Numbered from the stretch's first letter, positions 1 through 17,776 are shown. The stretch: DNA of 17,776 bases from a virus (IMGVR_UViG_3300031965_001155:1-17776), one strand, 5' to 3'. Made by a program: numbers and translations. Notes: generated by a model not told the origin, from the letters alone.

Positions 1-127
1 TAATTCTCATTTCGTCATAGAAAGAAAGAACGGTGTTTTTATCTAGATAGTTTCCGATAATAGACATAATAGAATTAACCCCGTAGTCGTTAAATAAAAT
101 TAAATTGTGATCTATAACTTCTTTTGT
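1..127. repeat. Terminal direct repeat, copy 1 (identical to 17650..17776)
   Basis: Base-by-base comparison shows that 1-127 equals 17650-17776. A length of 127 nt matches the largest k-mer of common de Bruijn assemblers, so this is most likely a circular-contig overlap rather than a biological LTR. Confidence 0.95.
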
Positions 128-403
128 TGTAATCTTTTTTGTTTTCTTATTCATAACTTTAATAGTTTTCATAGGTTTAGCCCAGTATTCGTTACCTTCT
201 TTGTCTATTGCTATATATTCCCCTCGTAAGAAATGTTCTATCTTTCCTAACATTTCTCCCGTATCTACTTGATACTGAATTAAATTAGCGTCTTCTTGCC
301 CCTGGTAGCTTGAAGAAGATAAAGCCGTATTAAGTTGTTGGTTTTTATTTCTTAAATCGTCGGCTTCTGCTTGTAGTTTTTGTAAAAAATCGTCACCTTC
401 CAT
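1..403 (-). CDS. Hypothetical protein, N-terminal part of a 226-aa junction-spanning ORF (ATG at 403; continues at 17776..17372)
   Basis: Manual translation from ATG 401-403 (minus strand) gives MEGDDFLQKLQAEADDLRNKNQQL...NSIMSIIGNYLDKNTVLSFYDEMRI with no stop before position 1. The last residues are the start of the 17372..17716 track ORF. A TATA box lies 23 nt upstream. The ORF track missed this ORF because it runs off the window edge. Confidence 0.8.
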   Translation of the reverse strand, partial: MEGDDFLQKLQAEADDLRNKNQQLNTALSSSSYQGQEDANLIQYQVDTGEMLGKIEHFLRGEYIAIDKEGNEYWAKPMKTIKVMNKKTKKITTKEVIDHNLILFNDYGVNSIMSIIGNYLDKNTVLSFYDEMRI

Positions 404-441
404 ATAGTAATTTTGTTAACAGAATTATTTAAATGTATCGT
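404..441 (-). promoter_or_regulatory. Leaderless promoter with a GTTAAC operator-like site between TATA and ATG
   Basis: The minus strand reads cATTTAAATaattctGTTAACaaaattactatATG. The TATA box is at 427-434 and GTTAAC at 415-420. The 19-mer 415-433 recurs at 17130-17148 with one mismatch. Confidence 0.6.
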
Positions 442-17178: not shown

Positions 17179-17340
17179 TTATTTCGTGTAGAGAATTAAG
17201 GGGTAATTTGTTGGAGAAATAGCGGGAGTAACATAATTTAAAATAACTTCTAATCTTTCTAAGGCTTGTTTCTTGTTTAAGCCCATGGAATAATACTTAT
17301 CTAGTAAAACTTTTTGTTCACTCTCTTTTAATCTATCCAT
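17179..17340 (-). CDS. Small putative HTH regulator (53 aa), below the ORF-track cutoff
   Basis: Manual translation gives MDRLKESEQKVLLDKYYSMGLNKKQALERLEVILNYVTPAISPTNYPLILYTK*. A leaderless promoter with an AGTTCACA box lies 22 nt upstream. Confidence 0.5.
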   Translation of the reverse strand: MDRLKESEQKVLLDKYYSMGLNKKQALERLEVILNYVTPAISPTNYPLILYTK

Positions 17341-17371
17341 GCAATAATAAGAAGTGTGAACTATTTAAATT
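17341..17371 (-). promoter_or_regulatory. Leaderless promoter with an AGTTCACA box
   Basis: The minus strand reads aaaATTTAAATAGTTCACActtcttattattgcATG. The TATA box is at 17363-17370 and the box at 17355-17362. Confidence 0.6.
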
Positions 17372-17776
17372 TTACCAACTACTAGGCTTAAATAAATTAA
17401 ACTTCTTTGTCGTCGGCATAGGTGTTCTAGTTCCGATAGAATCCATTTGCGTAAATATCCTAGAACTGTTTAAGTCTTCCATGGTCTTACCCCTTATAGC
17501 CCTTCTGTATGCGGATTCCGTAACGTGAAGAATATTAATAACTATTAACTGAAATCTTGTTTTTTTAAACTCTGTATCCACTCCCATTTTTTCATAATTG
17601 CAGTAAATAAAATTAGCTAGTTCGTCGCCTAAGTCTGCTAGGATCTCGTTAATTCTCATTTCGTCATAGAAAGAAAGAACGGTGTTTTTATCTAGATAGT
17701 TTCCGATAATAGACATAATAGAATTAACCCCGTAGTCGTTAAATAAAATTAAATTGTGATCTATAACTTCTTTTGT
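17372..17776 (-). CDS. Hypothetical protein, C-terminal part of the junction-spanning 226-aa ORF (see 1..403)
   Basis: The track ORF 17372..17716 stays open upstream to the window edge. The 17650-17776 portion duplicates 1-127. Confidence 0.8.
   Translation of the reverse strand, partial: TKEVIDHNLILFNDYGVNSIMSIIGNYLDKNTVLSFYDEMRINEILADLGDELANFIYCNYEKMGVDTEFKKTRFQLIVINILHVTESAYRRAIRGKTMEDLNSSRIFTQMDSIGTRTPMPTTKKFNLFKPSSW
17650..17776. repeat. Terminal direct repeat, copy 2 (identical to 1..127)
   Basis: Same comparison as copy 1; the offset is exactly 17,649 nt. Confidence 0.95.

Follow-up and report, generated by a model that had tools for sequence, protein, structure and literature searches.

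The window analysed here, IMGVR_UViG_3300031965_001155 (17,776 nucleotides (nt), the whole stretch of DNA presented), is a complete circular genome. It probably represents an uncultivated archaeal double-stranded DNA virus which belongs to an unclassified, family-level lineage of the spindle-shaped virus assemblage (His1, fusellovirus, thaspivirus and wyrdvirus type) and has a DPANN archaeon as host. The genome possesses a gene core conserved among related contigs, archaeal-type promoters, an ATPase of the ORF16/B251 type, an orphan methylase, a Xer-like recombinase located next to a conserved tRNA gene and a palindrome recurring at four promoters. The lifestyle of the virus would be chronic or temperate, and non-lytic.

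The first 127 bases of the window are exactly repeated as its last 127 (1–127 and 17650–17776). This is the longest terminal match in the window and leaves a circular unit of 17,649 bp with a GC content of 32.2 %. As 127 nt is the largest k-mer of the SPAdes assembler, the overlap bears the signature of a circular assembly path rather than being a biological repeat. A minus-strand open reading frame (ORF) extends from its ATG at position 403 through the junction to a stop codon at 17372, encoding 226 amino acids (aa) without interruption by stops. In three relatives from separate assemblies (L007, L016 and L017) the counterpart of the sequence ending at 17649 continues directly into that of positions 1–450, and the ends of these contigs lie at other points, as expected of a circular molecule; the collinearity of these independently assembled relatives shows the junction to be real. 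Within the window, closure is indicated solely by the overlap, but an artefact, i.e. a linear molecule with terminal repeats or a chimeric assembly, is extremely improbable in view of the intact conserved gene crossing the junction, the collinear relatives linearised elsewhere and the base composition, which is even along the whole genome. Exact terminal repeats were sought in the related contigs and none were found, most of these loci being partial. The closure proposed in an initial annotation, made from the sequence of the window, is thus borne out.

The connection to spindle-shaped viruses is provided by the 309-aa P-loop ATPase. Its Walker A (residues 31–38) and Walker B (residues 76–80) motifs are spaced by ~40 residues, and a helical domain forms the C-terminus. 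As a single sequence, the protein had no family match in Pfam or PHROGs. A first AlphaFold2 model, based on 25 close homologues, reached a predicted local distance difference test score (pLDDT) of 50 and was replaced by one from a diverse alignment of 104 homologues (down to 24 % identity; pLDDT 92.8), which displays a P-loop α/β core followed by the helical C-terminal domain. Among viral models, the best named Foldseek matches were ORF286 of Acidianus two-tailed virus (E 6.5e-6) and an Inoviridae Zot protein (E 7.8e-6), and a protein of Nitrosopumilus spindle-shaped virus was also retrieved (E 1.1e-3); in the PDB, matches comprised the Zot N-terminal domain 2r2a (TM-score 0.51 on the target) and AAA+ proteins such as Rix7, Cdc48, ORC/Cdc6, RFC and RuvB. 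Profile comparison by hhalign aligned the ATPase family with His1 ORF16 (probability 97 %, E 1.1e-10, 182 columns) and with SSV1 B251 (probability 86 %, E 5e-6), and yielded a probability of 1 % for VP8 of the pleolipovirus HRPV-1. In addition, 80 of the 104 family members match phrog_5484 (best E 1.2e-15), the family to which His1 ORF16 itself belongs at 2.8e-62, and a Pfam scan of the 104 members assigned nSTAND3 (71), superfamily 3 (SF3) RNA_helicase (34), AAA (22) and Zot (20). The protein is accordingly an AAA+/SF3/Zot-like ASCE ATPase, and Pfam, PDB structure and PHROG comparisons show it to be neither FtsK/HerA-like nor terminase-like. Judged by these profiles, it is homologous to the spindle-virus ATPases His1 ORF16 and SSV1 B251, and this homology of its family directly supports the fusello- or His1-like affinity suggested initially. 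The pleolipovirus alternative offered alongside is disfavoured, given the failure of the profile to match HRPV-1 VP8 and the lack of pleolipovirus PHROGs among the matches.

PHROGs labels the ATPase family a "DnaA-like replication initiation protein", and according to a review the role of His1 ORF16 is still to be determined (PMC4124505). With its AAA+/Zot-like core and a C-terminal helical domain resembling DNA-binding ones, the enzyme might act as a DnaA/Cdc6-like initiator or as a pI/Zot-like assembly motor. Several homologues (P0369, P0378, P0467, P0481, P0490, P0501 and P0507; 610–732 aa) harbour inteins, composed of Hint and a LAGLIDADG or HNH homing endonuclease, directly after Walker A. 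An intein position directly behind the P-loop fits an essential enzyme.

The candidate for the major capsid or coat protein is a 110-aa protein with hydrophobic helices at residues ~13–32 and ~72–97, separated by a 40-residue loop with conserved sequons; its likeness to the capsid proteins of spindle-shaped viruses is one of architecture only. No other protein of the family is conserved as well (77–96 % identity versus 50–70 % for its neighbours). The promoter and terminator ascribed to its gene in the initial annotation were both recovered, the former as a promoter region of its own and the latter as a 3′ hairpin and a T9-C-T9-C-T6 run. Many relatives encode a second two-helix paralogue of 160–202 aa beside the 105–115-aa copy (e.g., L003 14153–14731, L055 14072–14632, L056 13997–14605, L043 19142–19624; P0183 and P0187), the window having one copy. 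Likewise as first described, the 1136-aa ORF encodes a glycoprotein-like candidate adhesin, with a DUF2341 domain (E 1.6e-19), a signal-like N-terminus, three C-terminal transmembrane (TM) segments and 42 N-X-S/T sequons. Hydropathy predicts TM segments in 12 proteins overall, in keeping with the "at least 12" membrane or secreted proteins counted before. The long minus-strand operons would constitute a virion and egress module: the two-helix protein, with a presumably strong promoter and a terminator of its own, would form the coat, and the heavily glycosylatable, membrane-anchored adhesin would mediate attachment at the particle tip. About ten further membrane proteins may join assembly at the cell membrane, with release proceeding without lysis as in other spindle-shaped viruses.

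All ORFs were scanned as single sequences against Pfam, PHROGs and NCBIfam, with matches confined to the Sm-like (LSM) protein, the Dam methylase, the integrase, DUF2341 and a weak winged helix. As already noted in the initial annotation, hallmark genes of icosahedral or tailed viruses are missing from these matches: no HK97 or double jelly-roll capsid, portal, terminase, polymerase, primase, MCM or rolling-circle Rep was found, nor were relaxase, VirB4 or VirD4. Lokiarchaeal Fylgjavirus and Skuldvirus, which have double jelly-roll capsids, were rejected as relatives, no such capsid or packaging ATPase having been found by sequence profiles.

Related contigs, about 90 in total, were collected from IMG/VR (4), species-representative genomes (6) and JGI/GenBank metagenomes (142 confirmed, 80 kept); for the metagenome contig scan the closer ATPase alignment was used, broad alignments being too diverse. 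These contigs share a core of ~14 genes in a kept order. On one strand, the genes for the winged-helix protein (~320 aa), the 226-aa protein, a basic low-complexity protein (773–1175 aa) and small membrane proteins are followed, on the opposite strand, by those for the 180-aa protein, the ATPase, (methylases) and the recombinase. Back on the first strand follow the 228-aa two-TM protein, one or two copies of the two-helix protein, the 107-aa and 142-aa membrane proteins and the adhesin (~500–1120 aa), and the order ends with the 185-aa, 66-aa and 276-aa proteins. In a metagenome protein collection, homologues of the ATPase form 466 clusters (90 % identity), mostly of 305–312 aa and on contigs of up to 37 kb, and a profile search of 50 %-identity representatives retrieved 864 proteins at E ≤ 1e-3, of which 139 reached E ≤ 1e-30.

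The nearest contigs are just 85–89 % identical at the nucleotide level, hence this genome itself is new. A whole-genome nucleotide search of GenBank phage and archaeal-virus records gave no match, and protein searches of the same records with the ATPase and the adhesin returned only an 86-aa DUF2341 stretch of a Methanomicrobiales tailed virus. The initial designation "undescribed" calls for qualification and is unproven: the element is one among hundreds of public contigs of its kind, four of them already IMG/VR viral genomes. The lineage is widespread, apparently unclassified and of family level. The family may already be covered by the 2024 DPANN virus survey of Wu, Liu and Ni in Nature Microbiology, which reportedly includes spindle-shaped DPANN viruses; literature text searches on spindle viruses of Woese- and Pacearchaeota yielded nothing relevant.

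Accessory genes of the relatives are typical of mobile elements and comprise C5, N6 and N4 DNA methylases, insertion sequence (IS) transposases, a superfamily 2 (SF2) helicase, a second Zot/HerA-like ATPase and a reverse transcriptase; cellular housekeeping genes were not seen in the related contigs. The reverse transcriptase (352 aa; PF00078, E 5e-22) is encoded at 8274–9332 (minus strand) of L011, a contig from an "archaeon" bin, and could be part of a diversity-generating retroelement. Such retroelements are common in DPANN organisms and those of the candidate phyla radiation (CPR). Genome size within the family ranges from ~17 to 37 kb by way of a variable region downstream of the recombinase gene (L027 and L005), which in L027 (Ga0209976_10000314, 34.7 kb) holds ~40 extra small ORFs, including one for a YopX-domain protein.

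Minus-strand genes account for 74.7 % of the genome and 79 % of the coding sequence. The sole plus-strand block (4141–7699) is delimited by a divergence point at 4062–4140 and by convergence at the recombinase and tRNA genes, in agreement with the one-strand bias of ~78 % and the two turning points reported initially. Boxes of the type TTTATAAAG end ~21 nt ahead of the first ATGs of operons, and internal genes are preceded by purine-rich motifs of GGTG/GGGGG type resembling Shine-Dalgarno (SD) sites. A 14-nt palindrome, TTTTGTTAACAAAA, precedes the TATA-like box by a few bases in four promoters, those of the junction-spanning ORF, the divergent region, the operon of the 228-aa protein and the candidate coat-protein gene (sites in Table 1; a second GTTAAC lies near 10180). 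Allowing one mismatch at most, it has 9 matches versus 1.8 expected, a number reached in 0 of 200 shuffles. A 54-nt promoter cassette is moreover duplicated (4058–4111 and 9669–9722, 83 % identity). Its recurrence marks TTTTGTTAACAAAA as the likely operator of a virus-encoded regulator, to which the 329-aa winged-helix protein, or another factor, might bind.

An archaeal origin is consistent with the A1:U72 tRNA, the XerA-like recombinase, the TATA-type promoters with leaderless first genes, the SD-like motifs at internal genes and the LSM protein, a set of signatures largely recognised in the initial annotation and found again here. The LSM protein (PF01423, E 4e-18) is encoded in only some relatives; after the copies of related elements, its nearest homologues are cellular (66–68 % identity, on contigs of 100–290 kb) and, where named, are from Pacearchaeota, Nanoarchaeota or Nanobdellota. 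The nearest relative of the window, L007 (ATPase 98 % identical), and one other contig are from Woesearchaeota bins. The affiliation of these LSM proteins and the binning of L007 favour a DPANN host, most probably of the phylum Nanobdellota (Woese-/Pacearchaeales). Other bins with contigs of the family are labelled "archaeon", Promethearchaeota, Candidatus Staskawiczbacteria (CPR) and "bacterium" (L008, L009 and P0086 being examples of family members deposited in such genomes), the bacterial labels probably reflecting composition-driven mis-binning of a low-GC episome. An Asgard host, to which one Promethearchaeota-named ATPase homologue would point, has less behind it than a DPANN host, for which both the LSM homologues and binning speak.

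Next to the stand-alone ATPase and the LSM protein, Pfam, Rfam and profile comparisons verified the integrase, the tRNA and the orphan Dam methylase of the initial annotation. The tyrosine recombinase (PF00589, E 3e-16) has archaeal XerA as its best NCBIfam match (106 bits, under the cut-off of that model), the Dam methylase matches PF05869 (E 1.5e-20), and the tRNA-Met(CAU) with its A1:U72 pair scores 65 bits on the Rfam tRNA model. This tRNA gene lies beside the recombinase gene in at least 13 relatives (L007, L014, L015, L018, L020, L021, L024, L028, L030, L033, L040, L043 and L095). The A1:U72 pair is invariant in all 12 aligned tRNAs, and 14 of 21 pairs show compensatory changes. Position 37 is G in the clade of the window, which is odd for a tRNA-Met, and A in other clades; L043 also carries a tRNA-Val. 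The gene may yield a viral initiator tRNA, serve as an attP copied from diverging host tRNAs, or combine the two roles. The plus-strand block, with the 180-aa protein, ATPase, methylase and recombinase, would serve genome maintenance: the orphan Dam methylase could guard against host restriction, and the Xer-like recombinase could resolve dimers and/or integrate at tRNA-Met, in which case the adjacent tRNA would be attP.

Several larger soluble proteins complete the core (Table 1). No match to the 226-aa protein was found in Pfam, PHROGs, NCBIfam or PDB, and profile searches of PDB sequences with the families of the 226-aa, the 180-aa and the candidate capsid protein gave nothing significant. 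The 949-aa protein, whose homologues in the relatives measure 773–1175 aa, may be an internal DNA-binding protein. It has Ser runs near the N-terminus and Lys/Pro/Thr/Ser/Arg repeats in its C-terminal third, and aligns well among relatives only in the middle (residues ~170–620). The winged helix of the 329-aa protein is ArsR-like (E 8e-7). Its C-terminal domain (~260 aa) shows invariant RGH (82–84), Y178, R184-x-H186-Y187, D219-x-S221, E230-x-E232 and H292, a residue pattern that hints at a replication initiator or at a nuclease dependent on metal. Rep-Arvir/DUF7845 was rejected as its identity, a Pfam match being absent and the domain order different.

Table 1 Features of the 17,776-bp window (positions in the window; strand "." for features without orientation)
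Feature	Position	Strand	Remark
Assembly overlap	1..127	.	identical to 17650-17776; closes 17,649-bp circle
Junction-spanning 226-aa core protein, N-terminal part (ATG 403), soluble	1..403	-	30 non-identical homologues in relatives
Palindrome TTTTGTTAACA(A/G)AA, operator-like, just upstream of junction ORF	411..424	.	
949-aa core protein, Ser/Pro/Lys/Thr-rich, isoelectric point 10.9	442..3291	-	candidate internal/DNA-associated protein
72-aa two-TM protein	3329..3547	-	hydropathy
96-aa membrane protein	3544..3834	-	hydropathy
76-aa Sm-like (LSM/SmAP) protein, accessory	3831..4061	-	PF01423
Divergent promoter region, two TTTATAAAG boxes flanking palindrome TTTTGTTAACAAAA (4098-4111)	4062..4140	.	
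180-aa soluble core protein, always directly upstream of ATPase	4141..4683	+	
309-aa P-loop ATPase, His1 ORF16/SSV1 B251 homologue (by profile)	4688..5617	+	
58-aa small protein	5680..5856	+	
97-aa small protein	5860..6153	+	
147-aa Dam-family N6-adenine DNA methyltransferase, accessory, without partner restriction gene	6155..6598	+	
80-aa two-TM protein	6567..6809	+	hydropathy
297-aa tyrosine recombinase, nearest archaeal XerA/Xer	6806..7699	+	
tRNA-Met(CAU), initiator-like A1:U72, G37	7736..7810	-	Rfam tRNA model
99-aa highly acidic protein, isoelectric point 4.1	7850..8149	-	
102-aa protein, N-terminal TM or signal segment	8149..8457	-	hydropathy
100-aa single-TM protein	8687..8989	-	hydropathy
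228-aa two-TM core protein, first gene of operon, with promoter/operator cassette	8986..9672	-	
Palindrome TTTTGTTAACAAAA within 54-nt promoter cassette	9709..9722	.	cassette repeated at 4058-4111
110-aa two-helix hydrophobic protein, candidate major capsid protein, 3 sequons in loop	9771..10103	-	
GTTAAC operator-like site upstream of candidate capsid gene	10207..10217	.	
107-aa membrane core protein	10222..10545	-	
142-aa three-TM core protein	10538..10966	-	
1136-aa membrane-anchored, secreted glycoprotein-like DUF2341 protein, candidate receptor-binding adhesin	10967..14377	-	
185-aa four-TM core protein	14379..14936	-	
66-aa basic protein	14926..15126	-	
276-aa core protein, signal segment and four TM segments	15123..15953	-	
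329-aa protein, N-terminal ArsR/MarR-like winged helix; candidate regulator/replication initiator	15967..16956	-	
53-aa small protein	17179..17340	-	
Junction-spanning 226-aa core protein, C-terminal part	17372..17649	-	stop at 17372

A number of observations weigh against the assignment to a spindle-type DPANN virus. No virion protein is identified by homology. The 110-aa protein showed no similarity to His1 VP21 or SSV1 VP3 in BLASTP and hhalign comparisons (a shallow profile with an effective sequence number (Neff) of 2 and single-sequence templates), no PHROG match at a credible E-value and no PDB-chain match; given this lack of similarity to VP21 and VP3, capsid homology is unproven and the assignment is an inferred one. 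One of the 226-, 180-, 329- and 949-aa soluble proteins, which are without fold assignment, could be an unrecognised capsid or replication protein. The role of the ORF16/B251-type ATPase is unsettled in the cultivated viruses, and such ATPases could also sit on plasmids. The host call combines one probably host-derived gene with binning, and other bins are of Promethearchaeota, CPR and "bacterium". Finally, neither an integrated copy nor a host flank was seen in the maps of the ~90 related contigs, including six from binned genomes, although this absence is weak evidence, the bins being fragmentary. The attribute "integrative" of the initial annotation is unproven, as it goes back solely to a Xer-like recombinase adjoining a tRNA gene.

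Three other identities of the element were weighed against that of a spindle-type DPANN virus. A non-viral mobile element, i.e. a plasmid or integrative element with the ORF16-like ATPase as initiator and spread by vesicles (like the "plasmid vesicles" of haloarchaea) or by an unknown membrane apparatus, is unlikely, even though capsid homology was not detected, the PHROGs label is DnaA-like, the ATPase gene is located among maintenance genes outside the membrane-protein operons and all contigs seen are episome-like. It is at odds with the 9-kb conserved block of secreted and membrane proteins including the giant adhesin and the hyper-conserved, separately transcribed small hydrophobic protein with its paralogues, which is the structural layout of His1 and SSV, with the lack of relaxase, VirB4 and VirD4 matches and with the inclusion of four relatives among the IMG/VR viral genomes. 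Lower still is the probability of a pleomorphic, pleolipovirus-like vesicle virus, with the adhesin acting as spike and the small membrane proteins as internal ones. The ATPase profile speaks against it by missing VP8 and matching His1 ORF16 and SSV1 B251, as does the absence of any pleolipovirus match in PHROGs or Pfam, DUF7845/Rep-Arvir included; the resemblance consists in size, circularity, recombinase and tRNA-Met association, which recall the betapleolipovirus SNJ2, as well as in the presence of an NTPase, of several membrane proteins and of a spike-like protein that starts with a signal peptide and is anchored at its C-terminus.

Comparably improbable is that the genome is an already described, Asgard-assigned wyrdvirus with a Lokiarchaeon as host. 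The published description of wyrdviruses fits in size, circularity, two-TM capsid protein, adhesin and ATPase, one ATPase homologue is named Promethearchaeota, and the related contig L027 stems from metagenome Ga0209976 (deep sediment), the source of several wyrdviruses. The wyrdvirus authors, however, did not list Ga0209976_10000314 despite mining that very metagenome, the capsid candidate has no His1 similarity, Nanobdellota are indicated by both the LSM homologues and the binning of L007, and the comparison is by description only.

A spindle-type virus of a DPANN host would be a new lineage of a known virus type rather than the expression of a new biological principle. DPANN archaea are abundant and almost uncultivated, with few complete virus genomes securely linked to them. 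The closed genome anchors a family of which hundreds of fragments are public, in metagenomes of groundwater, digesters, saline lakes and both marine and freshwater sediments; some of these fragments currently sit, by mis-binning, in genomes of archaea or even of CPR bacteria. Through its ATPase, related to those of His1 and SSV1, the family takes its place in the spindle-virus assemblage specific to archaea and demonstrates the reach of the latter, and the candidate coat protein, the adhesin, the operator palindrome and the virus-borne initiator-like tRNA are offered as testable parts. More tentatively, the contigs may represent an unnamed, globally distributed family of spindle-type viruses of ultra-small DPANN (Woese-/Pacearchaeales) symbionts; such viruses would bring along an initiator-type tRNA-Met of their own, to which some members add an Sm-like RNA chaperone derived from the host. 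If true, the His1/fusellovirus lineage reaches the most genome-reduced archaea, and the viral tRNA-Met and Sm-like protein hint at intervention in host translation initiation or RNA metabolism.

Among known systems, the Pleolipoviridae (HRPV-1, SNJ2) resemble the present genome in having an NTPase, a spike-like protein and a virion module rich in membrane proteins, and SNJ2 has a circular ~17-kb genome with a tRNA-Met integration site. SNJ2 is temperate and integrating, and the Rep-Arvir family is the DUF7845 (PF25227) rolling-circle endonuclease (PMC13107129). Here, by contrast, the ATPase is unrelated and a DUF7845 Rep is absent; an SNJ2-like Rep-Arvir replicon was rejected, as neither the 329-aa protein nor other larger ORFs matched PF25227, and so was membership in Pleolipoviridae, given the HRPV-1 VP8 probability of 1 % and the lack of pleolipovirus PHROG or Pfam matches. 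The inovirus pI/Zot ATPases are alike in fold only (2r2a, Inoviridae Zot and the Pfam Zot matches of 20 of the 104 members); the ATPase of the window differs in having no TM segment and in its C-terminal helical domain. Thaspiviridae and Bicaudaviridae have the ATPase fold in common with it, as seen in the Nitrosopumilus virus protein and ORF286, and no other similarity was detected. Their genomes, of 27–62 kb, are linear or otherwise organised and encode different capsid proteins.

According to their description, wyrdviruses have genomes of 15–20 kb, some of which are circular, and encode an adhesin and conserved membrane proteins besides one or two capsid proteins with two TM segments; their ATPase lacks a TM segment and is likened by the authors to pI/Zot of filamentous phages, and WyrdV1 has no recognisable replication gene (bioRxiv 10.1101/2021.07.29.453957). 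Their contigs were gathered by BLASTP with the His1-like capsid protein (bioRxiv 10.1101/2021.07.29.453957; Medvedeva et al. 2021/2022). By published description only, the likeness covers size, circular members, two-TM (candidate) capsid proteins, adhesin, membrane-protein block and pI/Zot-like ATPase, whereas the His1-like capsid protein that defines wyrdviruses has no similar counterpart in the present candidate, and the host signal is DPANN.

With the Fuselloviridae (SSV1) the genome shares a circular double-stranded DNA of ~15–18 kb, an integrase, the related ATPase B251, small hydrophobic (candidate) capsid proteins, VP1/VP3 in SSV1, and a large protein, C792 in SSV1. SSV1 integrates into a host tRNA gene and is released non-lytically, and its C792 is the terminal adhesin VP4. 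In contrast to SSV1, the recombinase is Xer-like, similarity to VP3 is missing and the host is a mesophilic, low-GC archaeon; membership was rejected, since no ORF matches fusellovirus PHROGs and the recombinase is nearest to XerA. The Halspiviridae member His1 differs in that its genome is linear, ends in inverted terminal repeats and encodes a protein-primed DNA polymerase, as opposed to a circular genome with no polymerase in Pfam, PHROGs or NCBIfam, a difference on account of which membership in this family was rejected as well. His1 furthermore has a halophilic host and a high GC content, lacks recombinase, tRNA and LSM genes, and its VP21 has no detectable similarity here. What both have in common, at genome sizes of 14.5 kb (His1) and 17.6 kb, is the homologous ATPase, with 308-aa ORF16 recorded as having a helix-turn-helix near its C-terminus, the 309-aa protein likewise ending in a helical domain and phrog_5484 matching both. 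The two are also alike in a separately transcribed, small two-TM (candidate) coat protein, several multi-TM proteins and an adhesin with signal and anchor.

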